A program made the position numbers and the translations under genes. A model generated the notes under the pieces. It ran no database searches. It was not told where the DNA came from and was given only the letters and a program-made list of their open reading frames with translations. This document shows positions 10,471 through 62,355 of a stretch of DNA of 64,000 bases, in pieces. Source of the DNA: Candidatus Woesearchaeota archaeon (lineage in GTDB: Archaea > Nanobdellota > Nanobdellia > Woesearchaeales > DSVV01); the NCBI GenBank assembly GCA_038884615.1, contig JAWABL010000004.1, positions 4,479-68,478 of the forward strand, read 5' to 3'. Position 1 is the stretch's first letter. Every line of letters begins with the position of its first letter.

Positions 10471-10560
10471 ATTTTCAGCACATAATTTTTTTCAGCAAAT
10501 ATACTCTCTAAACTATATCATCTGCTCAGTAGTATTTATAAATATTTTTCTTTTATCTTG

Positions 10561-10725
10561 GGCACCCTTCAAAATCTCGTTTTCGGTCGGTTTAACATCA
10601 TGTTGGCACTTTTCCATTCAAATCAAAATATCTGGTTCTCCGTATGGAACAACTCACTTCAAACCCATATATTGTTCCTGAATGTACATACGCGGTAGAT
10701 GCTAACACACTTTTTGAACGCAGCC
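10561..10725 (+). repeat. MITE-like repeat element, copy 1 (about 165 bp, imperfect terminal inverted repeats GGCnnCGTTCAAAA)
   Basis: About 93% identical to 24649-24813. It is the reverse complement of 59895-60059 and 61726-61889. It is non-coding and intergenic between the pilin and T2SSF genes. Confidence 0.8.
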
Positions 10726-10783: not shown

Positions 10784-12376
10784 TTATGAAAAGATGCTTC
10801 CAAACAGCATTCCCATTATTTTTGACGCAAGAAAAAATATAATCATTGTTGCCAAAATAAATATTGGGAGATAGTGTAGCCCTTCTTTCACATCGCCTTT
10901 TCTTATTGTTGTAACAATGATACCAGAAAATAGGGAAGAAACTCCAAGACATGCGTAGATAAATATTCTATAGTCTTCAGGTTTGATATTATCGCTAGAT
11001 ATATTTATTGATATCATTCCCCCTCTTGGCATTGAACCCGCTGAACTTACGCCAGTGGCTATCTTCTGTACAATTAAAAGAAGCTGTTCTGATAGGGCAA
11101 AAAGTACTGGTGCGGCTATTATAGAGGCGAATGTTATGAAAATCGCATAGGTCATTACATTCGCGCTCATCTCTTTTTTCATCGCTCGTAGTTCGCTTAT
11201 GTTTATTGCAATCTTGTTAAGAAGTTCGCCCACATCTCCGCCAGACTCAGTGCCTTCAATTAAAAGGGTTATTGAGCGCTCAAGTATTGTAGAATCATAT
11301 CTTTTTGAAAAATCAATAAGTGCCTTGTTAAGGTCTTCGCCGCTGAGAGTCCTTTTTGCAACATCTTCTATTTCCTTTGCAAGAACACCAAATTTTGGCC
11401 TTACAGCAAACCAAAGTGCTCGGTCAATGGACATGCCCGCCCTTATGTTTGCAGATGTAAGCTGAAGAAAATCTGGCAGTACTTCTTCAATCATAAGCTT
11501 TCTTTGGTACATCCTAATATCAATATAAATCATAAAAGACAGCCAGATAACTACCCATATAAGGAAGAATCCAAGAGTCCCTAATAGTAGAATCATTAAA
11601 GCAATATGACTTAGCGAGTCGTCATGTGAAGCTAGCCTTATGATTACAAAGAGAGTTGCAATTGCTGTAATTACGCCTGAGACTGTAAGAATTATTTTTG
11701 GTACCTTTGCGGGCTCAAGCTCAAGCCCTGCCTTCTCCATGTGCTCAACAAGCCGCCTTTTTCTTGCAGGAGCTGTCAGCTTCTTCCTTGTCTCCTCTGT
11801 TTGTTTTCTGAATACTTTAGCAATTTCAATCCTTTCTTCCTTTTTTGCGTTGTTTAGGCCATCTTTCTGTTTGTTTGAAATCTTAAATCTACTTTTGACA
11901 TGATTTATGGCATTGAGCAGGAGAGACCCTTTTGATTTTTCTACTACATCTTCAGATTTTTTAGCAGATGGTGTATTCTCCTCTTGATTATCTACTACTT
12001 TTTCAGCCTTTTTTTCAAATGTTTCTTTTTGCTGTTCCTCTTTTTTCTCTTTAGAACTCTCTTTTAGTTTACCAAGCAAATTTCTATATAAACTCCAAGT
12101 AAACCCGGCCTTCTTTGTACTTTTTTCATCATTTTTTGCGACATTTGAAAGACTTTCTCCCATGCTTTCTCTGCGACTAACTTTAGAAACATCTAACTTA
12201 GACTCCTGTGTTTTCTTTGTTATTTCTGTTTTTTTTCTATTCATTCCAGCAGCATTAGTTTTCATATTACTGCTGACTTTTTTTTCTCTTTTATCGCCTT
12301 TCGTTCTCTTTCCTGTACTAACTGCCTTTCCTTTATATAGCATTCCATATGCGCTTTTGATATTTTTTTTAGCCAT
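10784..12376 (-). CDS. T2SSF-domain membrane protein (TadC/FlaJ-like) with a lysine-rich disordered N-terminal extension of about 230 aa
   Basis: The C-terminal half has a GspF/TadB/FlaJ-type domain (LPDFLQLTSANIRAGMSIDRALWFA...LLIEGTESGGDVGELLNKIA) flanked by TM helices. The N-terminal 230 aa are low-complexity K/E/S-rich. Confidence 0.7.
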   Translation of the reverse strand: MAKKNIKSAYGMLYKGKAVSTGKRTKGDKREKKVSSNMKTNAAGMNRKKTEITKKTQESKLDVSKVSRRESMGESLSNVAKNDEKSTKKAGFTWSLYRNLLGKLKESSKEKKEEQQKETFEKKAEKVVDNQEENTPSAKKSEDVVEKSKGSLLLNAINHVKSRFKISNKQKDGLNNAKKEERIEIAKVFRKQTEETRKKLTAPARKRRLVEHMEKAGLELEPAKVPKIILTVSGVITAIATLFVIIRLASHDDSLSHIALMILLLGTLGFFLIWVVIWLSFMIYIDIRMYQRKLMIEEVLPDFLQLTSANIRAGMSIDRALWFAVRPKFGVLAKEIEDVAKRTLSGEDLNKALIDFSKRYDSTILERSITLLIEGTESGGDVGELLNKIAINISELRAMKKEMSANVMTYAIFITFASIIAAPVLFALSEQLLLIVQKIATGVSSAGSMPRGGMISINISSDNIKPEDYRIFIYACLGVSSLFSGIIVTTIRKGDVKEGLHYLPIFILATMIIFFLASKIMGMLFGSIFS

Positions 12377-24648: not shown

Positions 24649-24813
24649 GGCTGCGTTCAAAATCTAGTTTTCGGTCGGTTTAACATCATGTTGGTACTTT
24701 TCCGTTTAAATGAAAATATCTGGTTCTCCGTATGGAACAACTCACTTCAAACCCATATATTGTTCCTGAATGTGCATACGCGGTGGATGCTAACACACTT
24801 TTTGAACGGTGCC
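24649..24813 (+). repeat. MITE-like repeat element, copy 2, flanked by a 12-bp direct duplication GATTACTTTAAG (24638-24649 and 24814-24825)
   Basis: It has the same family sequence as copy 1. A perfect 12-bp direct repeat lies immediately on both flanks, consistent with a target-site duplication. Confidence 0.8.
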
Positions 24814-32832: not shown

Positions 32833-32928
32833 TCGCTAGATGCAATTATTTTCACTATTTAAATATGTCGTAGCATGTACTTGATAATTAGGAATCTTTT
32901 TATATTTTGCATTTATAACCTTGTGCAC

Positions 32929-34188
32929 ATGCAATCCGTACTTAAGAAGTACAAGTTCAGCGAGAAAGAAATGGCTGAAATAATGGACAAAGTAAACTCC
33001 TTCTGTAATAAGCTTAGTCAGAAGCTTAAAAAAAATAATGTCAGCGCAGATGTTATGCTTGGTGGAAGCGCGGCAAAAGGCACTTTAATAAAAGGCGACT
33101 TTGACTGCGATATTTTTGTAAGGTTTAATGATAAATACTCATCTGTAAACATTTCTGATGTTCTTGAGAATGCTCTACATAGCCAAAAATATCAACGGTT
33201 GCACGGCTCAAGAGATTATTTCCAAGTTTATTCAAAAGGAATAAAGTATGAAATAGTTCCTGTTCTAAGGGTTGATAAAACTGAACAGGCAAAAAATGTT
33301 ACTGATCTATCTCCTTTGCATGTCAGCTGGATAAAGGCAAGGATTCAAAAAAACCCTTCTCTCGTTGATGAGATACTTCTTGCAAAACTTTTTTGCAAGG
33401 CACAGAACCTGTATGGTGCGGAGAGCTACATAAGAGGCTTTTCGGGGCATGTTCTTGACATACTTGTTGCATACTATGGCTCATTTGAGAGTTTGCTGAG
33501 AAACGCTGTTCATTGGCACAGGTACAAGGTTATTGACATTGAAGGGCATAATTCAAGAAGAGAGCTTAACAAATCAAAAATATCTCCTCTTATTGTTATA
33601 GATCCAATACAAAAGGATAGGAATGCAGCGGCGGCGTTGAGCATTGAAAATTTTGAACTCTTCAAAAAAAGAGCAAAAGAGTATATAGACCATCCTTCTC
33701 CAAAGTTTTTCGATAAAAAGCCTATTACTGTTGGAGTTTTGAGGAGGCTTTGTCCACCAGGTCGTGATGCAGTGATTCTTGAGGTAAGTCCATTAGAAGG
33801 AAAAGAAGATATCATAGGCACAAAGATGCTTAAAGTTTTTATTTTTATTTCAAGGCAGCTGGAGTTGCATGATTTCATAGTAACAGATAAAGGGTGGTCA
33901 TGGGACAGGAAAAAAAAGGCGCTTATGTGGTTTTTTGTTCCAAAAGGCGAGATTGCGCATACGAAAGAGCACATGGGTCCTCCGCTACATTGCAAGAAGG
34001 ATGTTTCAGCATTCAAGGCGGCTCATCGTGATACTTTTGTTCGCGGACATAGAATTTTTGCCAGAATAAAGAGACAATTTGTATTTCATAGGGACCTTAT
34101 TGAGCATCTTATAAATCAAAGCTATATAAAAGAAAAGGTTGCATCGGTTAGGCTGCTATCCGAAAATAAGCATAAACGAGGCGCATAA
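32929..34188 (+). CDS. cca: CCA-adding enzyme (archaeal class I tRNA nucleotidyltransferase)
   Basis: GGSAAKGTLIKGDFDCDIFVRF is the Pol-beta-type NTase motif (GS...D.D) typical of the archaeal CCA enzyme. The track starts 54 nt upstream. The sensible start is MQSVLKKY. Confidence 0.7.
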   Translation: MQSVLKKYKFSEKEMAEIMDKVNSFCNKLSQKLKKNNVSADVMLGGSAAKGTLIKGDFDCDIFVRFNDKYSSVNISDVLENALHSQKYQRLHGSRDYFQVYSKGIKYEIVPVLRVDKTEQAKNVTDLSPLHVSWIKARIQKNPSLVDEILLAKLFCKAQNLYGAESYIRGFSGHVLDILVAYYGSFESLLRNAVHWHRYKVIDIEGHNSRRELNKSKISPLIVIDPIQKDRNAAAALSIENFELFKKRAKEYIDHPSPKFFDKKPITVGVLRRLCPPGRDAVILEVSPLEGKEDIIGTKMLKVFIFISRQLELHDFIVTDKGWSWDRKKKALMWFFVPKGEIAHTKEHMGPPLHCKKDVSAFKAAHRDTFVRGHRIFARIKRQFVFHRDLIEHLINQSYIKEKVASVRLLSENKHKRGA

Positions 34189-55101: not shown

Positions 55102-55644
55102 ATGAAACGGTTGAAAGCGGTTTCACCGTGTTTAAGAGAAAAAAAACGTTATTTGGCGTATGAAGTTTTATCTAAACAACCAATAAATGATAAAAAAGTG
55201 TTATTTGACGCCTTAAACAAATCTTTTATAGACTATTTAGGGCAACTTGAGGCAGGAAAAGCAAGCATTATAATTATGCCTGAGATATATATACCAGTAT
55301 ATAAACAATCTTGCACACAAGGTACTATAAGAGGTACTATAGGTAATGTAACACCAAATAATGAAATATTGAAGACAGAAAGCAAAAGCATGGAAGATTT
55401 TGTACAGAATAAGTATAACAAATATAAAAAACAATATAATGAACCTATAAATAATTATACTATAAATAAGTATATAATAAATGGTATAATTAAAGTGAAC
55501 AACAAGTATGTAGACCATGTCAGGGCATCGCTTTGCTTTGTAAATAGGGTAGGAGAACAAGATGTTATTGTAAGGAGTATAAAAGTTTCAGGAATGATAG
55601 GCAAAATAAAAAGGCATATAATAGATAGAAAGATGGCGATGTAG
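55102..55644 (+). CDS. RNase P protein component Pop5/Rpp14-like, with a low-complexity insertion
   Basis: The N-terminus (LKAVSPCLREKKRYLAYEVLS) matches the Pop5 signature (L-x-x-x-L-R-x-K-x-R-Y-(L/I)-x-F-E-(V/I)). It sits in the conserved slot upstream of psmA in the archaeal exosome superoperon. An N/K/Y-rich insert of about 50 aa is present. Confidence 0.55.
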   Translation: MKRLKAVSPCLREKKRYLAYEVLSKQPINDKKVLFDALNKSFIDYLGQLEAGKASIIIMPEIYIPVYKQSCTQGTIRGTIGNVTPNNEILKTESKSMEDFVQNKYNKYKKQYNEPINNYTINKYIINGIIKVNNKYVDHVRASLCFVNRVGEQDVIVRSIKVSGMIGKIKRHIIDRKMAM

Positions 55645-59894: not shown

Positions 59895-60059
59895 GGCACC
59901 GTTCAAAAAGTGTGTTAGCATCCACCGCGTATGCACATTCAGGAACAATATATGGGTTTGAAGTGAGTTGTTCCATACGGAGAACCGGATATTTTCATTT
60001 AAACGGAAAAGTGCCAACATGATGTTAAACCGACCGAAAACGAGATTTTGAACGCAGCC
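59895..60059 (-). repeat. MITE-like repeat element, copy 3 (reverse orientation)
   Basis: It is the reverse complement of the 24649-24813 family sequence, with more than 90% identity. It lies immediately upstream of the Sm gene. Confidence 0.8.
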
Positions 60060-60190
60060 CTTGCAAAAGAAAAGATTTAAATATGGTTCACAATTCCGCT
60101 GATTTAGTTTTATATATGTTTATTTTGATTTGGGATTAAATTTTAAGGTTGATTTTTTAACTTAGCAAGGTTTATATGGAGGTTATATTT

Positions 60191-60421
60191 ATGGAGACAA
60201 GACCATTAGATGCTCTTAATCAGTCAAGAAACAAAAGAGTAATTGTTGAGCTAAAGAACAATAAGCAGTATGTAGGTCTTCTGAAAGCTTTTGATATACA
60301 TATAAATATAGTACTAGAAGATGCAGAAGAGAGAATTGATGGAGAGGTCAAGAGAAAGTTGGGCACTGTTTTTGTAAGAGGAGACACAATAACAATAATA
60401 TCGGCTTCAAAGCAAGCGTGA
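60191..60421 (+). CDS. Sm-like archaeal protein (SmAP/Lsm)
   Basis: RPLDALNQSRNKRVIVELKNNKQYVGLLKAFDIHINIVLEDAEE contains the Sm1 and Sm2 motifs. GGAGGT SD is 8 nt upstream of the ATG at 60191. The track's upstream ATG lies inside that SD. Confidence 0.85.
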   Translation: METRPLDALNQSRNKRVIVELKNNKQYVGLLKAFDIHINIVLEDAEERIDGEVKRKLGTVFVRGDTITIISASKQA

Positions 60422-60509
60422 TAGTAGTATTATATTTTAAACAATCTCTAATAATATAATAAATATAAAGCATATCAAACATAATATCAAGCTTTAATAG
60501 TGAATTAAA

Positions 60510-60677
60510 ATGTCAAAAGGAACAGCAAGTCATGGCAAGAAATCTGGTAAAAAGACACATATACCTTGTAGGCGTTGTGGTAATTATTCTTATCATATAA
60601 GAAAAAAGGTTTGTTCAAGCTGTGGTTTTGGTAAATCAAAACGCAAAAGAAGCTATGCATGGCAGAAAAAGGGTTAA
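60510..60677 (+). CDS. rpl37e: Ribosomal protein L37e
   Basis: Hand-translated as [55 protein letters not shown], which is the L37e C4 zinc ribbon. It occupies the typical Sm-L37e gene pair. It is below the ORF-track size cutoff. Confidence 0.85.
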
Positions 60678-60686
60678 TTTTTTGAT
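60676..60686 (+). terminator. Oligo-T tract (TTAATTTTTTG) after rpl37e, an archaeal-type terminator candidate
   Basis: A run of 6 T immediately follows the stop codon. Archaeal RNAP terminates at oligo-T. Confidence 0.3.
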
Positions 60687-60849
60687 ATATCTCTTTTAGG
60701 GGATCCTGAACCTAGAAAATAAACCACTATAAATAAACAGAATAATAACTATAAACCAATATAAATATATACTACCATCTAACCTGTACATAAAATATAG
60801 GTGCATAAAATCTAATATGTTGTATTTAATTAAATGTATTTAATTAAAT

Positions 60850-61051
60850 GCGGGGATGCCGGAGTGGCCAAACGGGATAGGCTTAGGACCTATTGGCTTA
60901 GTGCCTGCAGGGGTTCGAAAAACAGAATACCAAATGAAACAGAAAATGCGCGTTTTATCCATCATGGTTTTAAATAGTTTTATTTGATTAAAAAGTGGTT
61001 AAATAAAGACAATTTATTTTTGGTGTTCTGGCGGAAGTCCTCTTCCCCGCA
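60850..61051 (+). tRNA. tRNA-Leu(TAG) interrupted by an intron of about 118 nt in the T-loop (position 59/60)
   Basis: Acceptor 5' GCGGGGA (60850-56) pairs with 3' TCCCCGC (61044-50), followed by discriminator A. The D-arm is GCCGGAGTGGCCAAACGGG. The anticodon stem-loop is ATAGG-CTTAGGA-CCTAT, with anticodon TAG. The variable arm is GGCTTAGTGCC (class II). T-stem AGGGG and T-loop TTCGAA are separated from the final loop nt T and the 3' T-stem CCTCT by about 118 nt. No CCA is encoded. Confidence 0.7.
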
Positions 61052-61381
61052 TATTTAATTTTTTAATAAAAAAATTTGCTGTTAGCAAAGCATTTTTAAT
61101 GCAAAGACATGCCATCGGATTTTATTTATCAGTACTTTGAATTCATGCCCTATTATTCTTATGACCTATATAATAGAATACTTATAAAAAAATACTTTAT
61201 AAAAACACTATAGATATATATACAAGCTCTTTTTTATATCATAAATTTATATCATAAAAATAATATGGCAAACAGGGCAAACACCGTAAGACCTTTGCCC
61301 TTTGTTTTTAATAGAATTTTATATAAAGAAGCTTTTTGCTACAAATTTTTAAGGTTTTTATAAAACCTGTAAAACATTTTT

Positions 61382-61545
61382 GCGGGGGTGCCGGAGTGGC
61401 CAAACGGGCACGATTCAGGCACTTGCCTGCCTGACATAGGCAGATTGAAACGTCGTGTGGCTCAGTGCCTACAGGGGTTCAAATAGCGAATTACAAAAAA
61501 TAGAAAACCATTTACGGAATTCGCTTGGGAGTCCTCTCCCCCGCA
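61382..61545 (+). tRNA. tRNA-Leu(CAG) with two introns (about 32 nt at canonical 37/38; about 48 nt in the T-loop at 59/60)
   Basis: Acceptor GCGGGGG pairs with CCCCCGC plus A73. The D-arm is identical to the neighbouring tRNA. The anticodon stem CACGA pairs with TCGTG across a 32-nt insert placed after the loop TTCAGG (anticodon CAG). The variable arm is GGCTCAGTGCC. T-stem AGGGG and loop TTCAAA are followed by a 48-nt insert containing the perfect 8-bp inverted repeat AGCGAATT...AATTCGCT, then T CCTCT. Confidence 0.7.
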
Positions 61546-61725
61546 TTAATTTATTTCTTTAACTACTTATAACTACTTATATAATTATAGGGTCATTTAT
61601 AGATATCATATAATAAACCCTCCATATTATTAATTCCCTATTTTATTATTGTGTTTATTGTGTTATACATATCATCATGTTATACACTATTTTATACTAT
61701 TTTATGTTATTATACTCTATATTAT

Positions 61726-61889
61726 GGCACCGTTCAAAAAGTGTGTTAGCATCCACCGTGTATGCACATTCAGGAACCATATATGGGTTTGAAGTGAGTT
61801 GTTCCATATGAAGAACCAGATATTTTCATTTAAACGGAAAAGTGCCAACATGATGTTAAACCGACCGAAAACGAGATTTTGAATGCAGC
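61726..61889 (-). repeat. MITE-like repeat element, copy 4 (reverse orientation)
   Basis: It has the same family sequence as 59895-60059, with a few substitutions. It lies downstream of the second tRNA-Leu. Confidence 0.8.
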
Positions 61890-62355
61890 TCTAATATATA
61901 TTATATAATATATATTATATTAATAGTATCTAATAGTACGCTGATGTAATAGTACATTATATACACGTTATATACTAATTAAATCATTAGTATTAATTCT
62001 TTAAGTAGTAAGTTGAGTGTTTTATTCTCTATGTGGGTGTTATTTTGTCATTTTGTTTTTGCTTTTAATTTAACTATTTTTAATCTTATAACAAAATAAA
62101 AATAGAATTAATACCTTGTGACTACTTACTATTTGATATCTATTTACAAGTGATAACAGCCTCTTTTGTAGTTTAATAGTATTATTAAGCCTTAATAAGG
62201 CTCTTTGCCTATTTTATAGTTTTATTAATCACGAAAAATTTATAAAGCAGGGTTCATAAACAAACAACTTAATAGCTGTCATAGTGTTTGTTATAGCTCT
62301 TTTGTTTGGGGCGTAACATTTAAAAACAAAGGTAGAATACGGCTATAATGATGGC

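Follow-up and report, generated by a model that had tools for sequence, protein, structure and literature searches.

The 64,000-nucleotide (nt) stretch of DNA analysed here, which we call the window (contig JAWABL010000004.1, positions 4,479 to 68,478 of the forward strand, assembly GCA_038884615.1, Candidatus Woesearchaeota archaeon), carries two tandem genes for leucine transfer RNA (tRNA-Leu) whose T-loops are interrupted by long inserts. Very probably, both are functional, intron-containing genes that are spliced by the endonuclease EndA and an RtcB-type ligase through bulge-helix-bulge (BHB) motifs. We base this reading on sequence and predicted folding. The inserts in the T-loops lie between tRNA positions 59 and 60 (59/60), which is a non-canonical intron site.

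Structure of the two interrupted genes

Gene 1, for tRNA-Leu(UAG), spans positions 60850 to 61051 of the window on the plus strand (202 nt) and has a single insert of 118 nt at 59/60. Gene 2, for tRNA-Leu(CAG), spans 61382 to 61545 on the same strand (164 nt) and has two inserts, one of 32 nt at the canonical 37/38 site and one of 48 nt at 59/60. Exon 1 of gene 1 (60850 to 60919, plus strand; tRNA positions 1 to 59) starts with the acceptor 5′ strand GCGGGGA. It continues through a 3-base-pair (bp) D-stem (CCG/CGG), the anticodon arm ATAGG-CTTAGGA-CCTAT with the anticodon UAG, a long variable arm, and the T-stem strand AGGGG, and it ends with the T-loop sequence TTCGAA. The 118-nt intron follows (60920 to 61037, plus strand; 29% GC). 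Exon 2 (61038 to 61051, plus strand; positions 60 to 73) consists of T60, CCTCT, TCCCCGC, and the discriminator A.

Gene 2 has the same layout with the anticodon CAG, and all its parts are on the plus strand. Exon 1 (61382 to 61419; positions 1 to 37) ends with G37, after which the 32-nt intron is inserted (61420 to 61451). Exon 2 (61452 to 61483; positions 38 to 59) ends with TTCAAA and is followed by the 48-nt intron (61484 to 61531). Exon 3 (61532 to 61545; positions 60 to 73) reads T, CCTCT, CCCCCGC, and A. The T-loop is thus broken between TTCGAA and T in gene 1 and between TTCAAA and T in gene 2, and CCTCT and the 3′ acceptor strand come next in both. Each 3′ exon fits its own 5′ exon, with A7:T66 in gene 1 and G7:C66 in gene 2. 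Neither gene encodes CCA. The exons are colinear and in cis in both genes, within the 202- and 164-nt spans, which rules out a split or permuted tRNA made from trans-spliced halves.

The likeness between the two genes (60894 to 60934 compared with 61458 to 61498) reaches about 15 nt into the T-loop introns, with 9 of those 15 positions identical. Both T-loop introns end in AG directly before T60.

Detection by tRNA finders

ARAGORN reported zero tRNAs in the raw 64-kb window, and Rfam at its gathering threshold gave no match in the unspliced genes. A permissive Rfam search returned a sub-threshold partial tRNA match at 60850 to 60909, the 5′ part of gene 1, with 26.7 bits against a cut-off of 29. 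Over the whole window, a permissive Rfam search found no further disrupted tRNA. We then removed the inserts in silico. ARAGORN now called tRNA-Leu(tag) and tRNA-Leu(cag), and the unspliced controls gave nothing. Both spliced products form a complete class II cloverleaf with a long variable arm and discriminator A.

Both genes therefore escape ARAGORN and the Rfam/Infernal tRNA model, and genes of this kind in DPANN metagenome-assembled genomes (MAGs) would be counted as missing tRNAs. Missed split tRNAs distort estimates of completeness and decoding capacity in these MAGs. Published work points the same way, in that the incomplete tRNA sets of DPANN genomes are attributed to disrupted genes that go undetected (PMC5829648).

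BHB motifs at the exon-intron junctions

An archaeal BHB has a 4-bp central helix and two 3-nt bulges on opposite strands, with the cut after the second bulge nucleotide (PMC4090602). In the 48-nt intron, the lower helix is the T-stem (AGGGG/CCTCT), the 3′ bulge is A-G-T60, the central helix is TTCA/TGGG, and the 5′ bulge is A58-A59-T, which is directly adjoined by an 8-bp upper helix (AGCGAATT/AATTCGCT). In the 32-nt intron, the anticodon stem (CACGA/TCGTG) is the lower helix. Its 3′ bulge is A-C-G38, its central helix TTCA/TGAA, and its 5′ bulge G36-G37-C, and the upper part is made of an A-T pair, a C.A mismatch, and a helix of 6 to 7 bp. The 118-nt intron again uses the T-stem AGGGG/CCTCT as the lower helix and A-G-T60 as the 3′ bulge. 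The intron ends with CGGA-AG, and this CGGA pairs with T54 to G57 to form the central helix TTCG/CGGA. At its 5′ site, five unpaired A residues face one unpaired G, and the upper helix has 12 bp (CAGAATACCAAA/TTTGGTGTTCTG). We graded the 48-nt motif as a strict helix-bulge-helix-bulge-helix (hBHBh′), the 32-nt motif as near-strict, and the 118-nt motif as strict at the 3′ site (helix-bulge-helix, hBH) and relaxed at the 5′ site.

We shuffled each intron 20,000 times and scored a 4-bp central helix at the exact junction together with an adjoining upper helix, of 12, 7, and 8 bp for the 118-, 32-, and 48-nt introns, respectively. The observed combination was reached by 0, 0, and 1 of the 20,000 shuffles (≤5e-5). 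BHB geometry at all junctions is far above chance.

A first-pass annotation of this DNA had reported the two genes and inserts of 118, 32, and 48 nt, and its coordinates and lengths hold to the base. It had also described all canonical tRNA elements in order in both genes, with T-loop introns at the non-canonical 59/60 site and one intron at 37/38. The full cloverleaves that ARAGORN recovers after in silico splicing agree with that description, as do the valid spliced tRNAs and the BHB or relaxed BHB at every junction. The motifs that it had proposed to look for at the junctions are present at all of them, in relaxed form at the 5′ site of the 118-nt intron.

A probable route to the mature tRNAs

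From the gene structure, the BHB geometry, the recurrence of the site in the clade, and the covariation described below, we infer the following route. The two genes would be transcribed independently in this Woesearchaeota (DPANN) archaeon, and each primary transcript would fold so that every exon-intron boundary forms a BHB. In the T-loop introns, the T-stem would serve as the lower helix, and T54 to R57 would form the 4-bp central helix with the four intron nucleotides that precede the last two. The cut sites would then lie within the flanking bulges, after A59 and before T60. EndA, the archaeal splicing endonuclease, would cut both sites, an RtcB-type ligase would join the exons, and the excised intron would probably be circular. 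The 3′ CCA would then be added by the CCA-adding enzyme that the window encodes.

Several observations weigh against this reading. The 5′ site of the 118-nt intron is a 5×1 internal loop and has no clean 3-nt bulge, and an endonuclease with relaxed specificity is therefore needed. Such broad specificity is tied to the L3-loop EndA in DPANN (PMC5829648), in genomes other than the one that contains the window. Minimum free energy (MFE) folds give the T-stem and the upper helices, and they contain the weak central helices only in part. However, the central helices are short and contain G-U pairs, so partial recovery in MFE folds is expected and is no argument against the motif. EndA was not found among the 30 open reading frames (ORFs) of the window that were scanned, and neither was RtcB. 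A tblastn search of the window and the related loci with an M. jannaschii EndA sequence gave no match, which is a weak negative.

Recurrence and covariation in relatives

A metagenome scan for the shared D-arm gave at least 120 tRNA-Leu loci. We analysed them with a structural parser, which requires a 5′ T-stem and TTCRA and then a 3′ T-stem and 3′ acceptor strand that adjoin each other and pair in full. This parser replaced alignment to a single reference, which had misplaced gaps where the anticodon arms differ. The counts that follow hold among the matches listed, with the window's genes included where stated. The parser resolved 111 of 124 genes, counting those of the window, and the T-arm is continuous in 98 of the 111. 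In 13 genes (2 in the window and 11 metagenomic), there is an insert exactly at 59/60; the 11 metagenomic inserts are 31 to 104 nt long. The 59/60 intron is thus recurrent in the clade, in about 9% of the sampled tRNA-Leu genes. About 60% of the genes exceed the length of a continuous tRNA. The 59/60 introns usually accompany introns at 30/31 and 37/38, giving three-intron tRNA-Leu(CAA) and tRNA-Leu(UAG) genes.

In all 13 split genes, the four intron nucleotides that lie before the last two and T60 pair with positions 54 to 57. These tetranucleotides are CGAA, CGGA, TGAA, TGGA, and TGGG. The central helix is 95.5% paired over the 13 genes, with three double changes from G57:C to A57:U. The parser does not impose this helix. 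It does impose acceptor and T-stem pairing, so those two are not independent evidence. The first-pass annotation had pointed out that 59/60 introns are known mainly from Thermoproteales and some DPANN or ARMAN lineages. This agrees with the Woesearchaeota MAG that hosts the genes and with the recurrence of the site, with covariation, in the 11 listed tRNA-Leu genes of the clade.

Six relatives (L087, L139, L158, L161, L184, and L194) share a conserved family of long 59/60 introns with the sequence ACAGCTTTTTTGC-N-GCAAAAAACCTGGGAAAA...ATTTTGC-N-GCAAAAT...AAAAGCTG-N-CGAAAG. The family is common to tRNA-Leu(CAA) and tRNA-Leu(UAG) genes. Only at its ends is the window's 118-nt intron like the family (AACAG...CTG-N-CGRAAG before T60), where one unpaired nucleotide also faces the 5′ bulge. 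The family profile misses the window, and on that ground we rejected homology of the 118-nt intron with this family.

We also compared synteny at 80 loci from reference genomes anchored on Rrp42. Synteny is gone at 50 to 65% Rrp42 identity, and L003 is the only one of the 80 with a related tRNA-Leu. The exons of its tRNA-Leu(UAG) (11190 to 11354, minus strand) are nearly identical to those of gene 1. However, its T-loop is continuous, and its introns lie elsewhere, 32 nt in the D-loop (after GCCGGAGTGGCCAAA) and 49 nt at 37/38. Intron positions thus change fast between tRNAs of close sequence. The closest relative is L081, with Rrp42 74% identical, which keeps the Sm-L37e-tRNA-Leu(UAG)-tRNA-Leu(CAG) neighbourhood. 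The tRNA-Leu pair is inverted there, and ARAGORN calls both genes continuous. The T-stem is GTGGG/CCTAC in L081 and AGGGG/CCTCT in the window. It differs on both strands, and therefore the interrupted T-stem of the window has been kept complementary.

Two further features were seen in the introns of relatives. The 37/38 introns of L161, L184, L087, L158, L147, L198, and L166 contain a conserved motif, GTGATGAGGC-N-GCCGATGAA, in which two GATGA-type elements flank a short hairpin. The genes are mostly of the CAA type, with UAG in L166. This motif may be a kink-turn (K-turn) or L7Ae-type site, and it is absent from the 32-nt intron of the window. The tRNA-Leu of L183 (minus strand, start 3582) has an insert at 53/54, the border of T-stem and T-loop, where GCAGG is followed by the insert TAATTG...CTGCA and then by TTCGAAACCTGC. 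This is another T-arm intron position in the clade.

The relatives bear directly on an alternative in which the two genes are pseudogenes, their T-loops hit by junk or mobile DNA, while working continuous copies lie at other places in the genome. In favour of this, neither ARAGORN nor Rfam recognises the genes, the closest relative has both genes continuous, and the genome contains an active-looking 167-nt repeat resembling a miniature inverted-repeat transposable element (MITE), two copies of which bracket the block. However, no second copy of any insert was found in the window or the 81 related loci, none of the inserts is related to the MITE-like repeat, and all three are set in precise BHB motifs. 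The exons are intact and the split stems covary. Moreover, the same site is split in 11 other genes of the clade, among the matches listed, and the splicing helix is conserved in them. The first-pass annotation had reasoned that these two would be pseudogenes if the genome contained an uninterrupted tRNA-Leu(UAG) or tRNA-Leu(CAG) at another place. We found no such gene, and no other tRNA-Leu copy or fragment, within the 64-kb window, which answers the point for the window. We consider the pseudogene explanation very unlikely and favour two functional, spliced genes.

Content of the introns

The three introns of the window have no second copy in the window or in 81 related loci by BLAST. Two classes of insert were ruled out. 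Group I and II introns have a conserved catalytic core and a length of at least about 200 nt; the inserts here are only 32 to 118 nt long and have no Rfam intron match. A MITE or transposon insert does not fit introns that are single-copy and unrelated to the window's four-copy MITE-like repeat.

The first-pass annotation had also suggested that the 118-nt intron could itself encode a C/D box or other small RNA (sRNA). A functional sRNA of this kind, such as a C/D box guide, or a stable circular RNA with a role of its own would suit an intron that is long for an archaeal tRNA. It is predicted to form several hairpins closed by the 12-bp stem, and the relatives keep the conserved intron family, of 76 to 104 nt, at the same site. 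However, the suggestion was not borne out. Neither strand of the 118-nt or the 48-nt intron contains a C or D box, and in the 32-nt intron a single CTGA occurs but a C box is missing. Rfam gave no match of any kind within the three introns, snoRNA and sRNA included, and for the 118-nt intron this holds even at E ≤ 10. The GC content of this intron is near that of the surrounding non-coding DNA (about 31% over 60001 to 62000). BLAST found no homologue in the 81 related loci, and the profile of the relatives' introns, searched against 201 loci and the window, misses it. Within the long-intron family, the interior arm is replaced or deleted among members and shows almost no covariation. We therefore give a hosted sRNA or stable circle very little probability; the introns probably have no function of their own.

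Spare 3′ exons and the origin of the introns

In L081, each of the two continuous tRNA-Leu genes is followed by a trailer of about 100 nt (11585 to 11722 and 11965 to 12098, minus strand) that aligns end to end with the long-intron family. At the end of each trailer there is a decayed 3′-exon copy (TCCCCAC and TCCCAGC). The sole difference on the 5′ side is a stretch of 12 nt, TCCTACTC[T/C]CCG (positions 60 to 71), at the would-be intron start. The L081 trailer could be a former intron whose old 3′ exon was turned into a trailer, or it could be a pre-intron state. At 11696 to 11791 (minus strand), a 56-nt spacer with the hairpin GGCGGGC-TTCAT-GCCCGCC lies between tRNA-Leu(CAG) and its trailer. 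The same interval also contains another partial tRNA copy, which covers everything from variable arm to 3′ end (GTAGCTAATGCTTACGTGGGTTCGAATCCTACTCCCCGCA), and the tRNA-Leu(CAG) region is thus a nested series of copies of the 3′ part.

Similar copies occur in other relatives. Among the matches listed, copies of a gene's own 3′ end lie on the same strand, no more than 450 nt downstream, for 15 genes of the clade, with 19 matches, of which 10 are exact. The upstream and opposite-strand controls gave 5, 3, and 1 matches, none of them exact. The spacers between gene and spare copy are intron-sized and non-coding. In L149 (404 to 642), a spacer of 125 nt separates a tRNA-Leu 5′ fragment (positions 1 to 30) from a downstream tRNA-Leu(CAA) that is complete and continuous. 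This spacer opens with the conserved element of the intron family (ACAGCTTTTTT...AAAACCTGGGAAAA), and AATTGCAA/TTGCAATT close it. This arrangement mirrors that of L081, and the end of the fragment, 30/31, is a common intron site in the clade.

Individual loci differ in detail. The copies are exact in L092, L147, L165, L173, L179, L192, and L198 and near-exact in L088, L121/L127, L166, L171, and L189. The copied genes are continuous or anticodon-intron tRNA-Leu genes, with one or two copies of the T-arm or 3′ end following after 47 to 250 nt. In L179, a 72-nt unit is repeated twice as a perfect tandem. Part of the spacer in L092 and L147 is complementary to the copy, and the two make a minihelix-like hairpin.

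We tentatively suggest, as an idea that we hold to be possible rather than probable, that the 59/60 intron and the arrangement of continuous gene, intron-sized spacer, and spare 3′ end are interconvertible states of one locus. The window may be the intron state of the locus that is syntenic with L081. Read as loss, an intron may have been bypassed by local duplication of the 3′ exon. Read as birth, an intron may have arisen by a deletion after duplication of the 3′ end, with the self-complementary TTCGAA supplying the central helix. If true, either direction would be a concrete DNA-level mechanism for archaeal tRNA intron turnover. If the link between intron and spare exon holds, the clade is a good natural system for the gain and loss of tRNA introns. 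The two T-loop introns of the window themselves weakly suggest a common ancestry, through duplication or gene conversion of a gene that was already split.

A related explanation for the origin is that the 59/60 introns are not ancient introns inherited vertically but are left over from short elements that duplicated the 3′ end of the tRNA, such as integration scars or local duplications. It draws on the L081 trailers, which match the intron family and end in a decayed 3′ exon, on the excess of downstream 3′-end copies over the controls, and on the mirrored arrangement in L149. In addition, TTCGAA is its own reverse complement, so that a duplicated T-loop supplies a strand that pairs with T54 to G57, and a precedent model has been published (PMC3293823). 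However, the window has no spare exon copies and its introns do not match the long-intron element. L081 can equally be read as intron loss, most of the downstream copies begin upstream of position 60 and hence are not simply former 3′ exons, and no integrase or other mobility gene is linked to the elements. We lean against an origin from such elements, while granting it a real chance. It concerns where the introns came from, not how the genes work.

Putative promoters and terminators, and gene neighbourhood

Each gene has its own TATA-like box and T-rich trailer. For gene 1, an A/T-rich TATA-like element (TTTAATTAAA; 60825 to 60834, plus strand) lies 16 to 25 nt upstream. A 14-nt sequence (gtatttaattaaat) stands there twice in tandem (60822 to 60849, plus strand), and the element lies in the first of the two copies. 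For gene 2, the TATA-like element (TTTTTATAAAA; 61355 to 61365, plus strand) lies 17 to 27 nt upstream. The usual spacing of archaeal TATA boxes suggests that these elements are promoters. The T-rich trailer of gene 1 (tatttaattttttaa; 61052 to 61066, plus strand) is likely an oligo-T terminator. Between the two genes, at 61268 to 61310, there is a short hairpin-like stretch (GGCAAACAGGGCAAA...TTTGCCCTTTG) with no Rfam match.

The genes sit downstream of the archaeal exosome superoperon (proteasome alpha, SBDS, Rrp4, Rrp41, and Rrp42), with an Sm protein and ribosomal protein L37e encoded between Rrp42 and the tRNA-Leu pair. The Rrp42 of the window matches a protein of a Candidatus Woesearchaeota MAG, encoded on a 70.8-kb contig, with 100% identity, and the next relative has 74%. 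The window also encodes a class I CCA-adding enzyme (32875 to 34188, plus strand) and the RNase P protein Pop5 (Pop5/Rpp14; 55102 to 55644, plus strand), which fit tRNA genes that lack an encoded CCA.

The 167-nt interspersed repeat has four copies with 94 to 98% identity, at 59895 to 60061 and 61726 to 61892 on the plus strand and at 24649 to 24813 and 10560 to 10720 on the minus strand. Its termini are inverted (GGCACCGTTCAAAA ... TTTTGAACGCAGCC), which makes it MITE-like. Two copies, spaced 1831 nt apart, flank the Sm-L37e-tRNA-Leu block. None of the 81 related loci searched has the repeat, and it shows no relation to the introns. We considered these flanking direct repeats as attachment (att) sites or as a duplication boundary and ruled this out, since they belong to a four-copy interspersed MITE-like family.

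Comparison with known systems

The tRNA-Trp intron of Euryarchaeota, for example in Haloferax volcanii, is about 105 nt long, lies at 37/38, and contains C, D′, C′, and D boxes. The 118-nt intron of the window resembles it as an intron of about 100 nt that would be removed via a BHB motif. However, it lies at 59/60 and is without such boxes.

Closer parallels are found at the T-loop site. The 59/60, 30/31, and 53/54 positions are among the listed non-canonical intron sites of archaea (PMC4090602). A mini-helix modelled on the 59/60 hBH intron of the ARMAN-2 pre-tRNA-Cys has served as the substrate in cleavage assays of the endonuclease in vitro (PMC5829648). The same study describes DPANN lineages with an L3-loop EndA in which tRNA genes are markedly disrupted, and a woesearchaeote was included among the genomes predicted with tRNAscan-SE (PMC5829648). 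The genes of the window share with the pre-tRNA-Cys(GCA) of ARMAN-2 (Ca. Micrarchaeum) and with tRNAs of Thermoproteales the insertion at 59/60 of the T-loop and the use of the T-stem as the lower helix of an hBH or hBHBh′. They also share a 59/60 intron beside a canonical 37/38 intron in one gene and a DPANN host (PMC5829648, PMC4090602). They differ in being class II tRNA-Leu genes, in coming from Woesearchaeota, and in having a 118-nt intron with a 5×1 loop at its 5′ site.

Multi-intron tRNAs are known from Thermoproteales, for example Pyrobaculum tRNA-Pro with introns at 25/26, 37/38, and 56/57, and related introns occur there in different tRNAs (PMC4090602). Similarly, the relatives of the window carry up to three introns (30/31, 37/38, and 59/60), and one conserved intron is common to their tRNA-Leu(CAA) and tRNA-Leu(UAG). 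However, the phylum is a different one, and in our sample introns are shared only within the tRNA-Leu family. Because the tRNA-Leu exons are nearly identical, gene conversion is a simpler explanation for the shared intron than transposition.

For the spare 3′ ends, the closest likeness is the tRNA-Thr locus of Caldiarchaeum subterraneum, where the copies are separated by a 1.8-kb element that carries a recombinase (Sugahara et al. 2012, PMC3293823). The common feature is a set of direct repeats of one tRNA end beside a complete tRNA, tied to intron gain, and L081, L149, L173, and others are comparable. In contrast, the spacers of the relatives are 47 to 250 nt long and non-coding, and one is homologous to a bona fide intron.

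Genes of this type are thus rare but not new, since introns at 59/60, tRNAs with several introns, and extensive tRNA-gene disruption in DPANN have all been published. What is specific here is the class II tRNA-Leu isotype, the Woesearchaeota lineage, the 118-nt intron, which exceeds all 11 of the relatives' 59/60 introns listed (31 to 104 nt), and its relaxed 5′ site. With these two genes, class II tRNA-Leu of Woesearchaeota joins the tRNAs that have T-loop introns.

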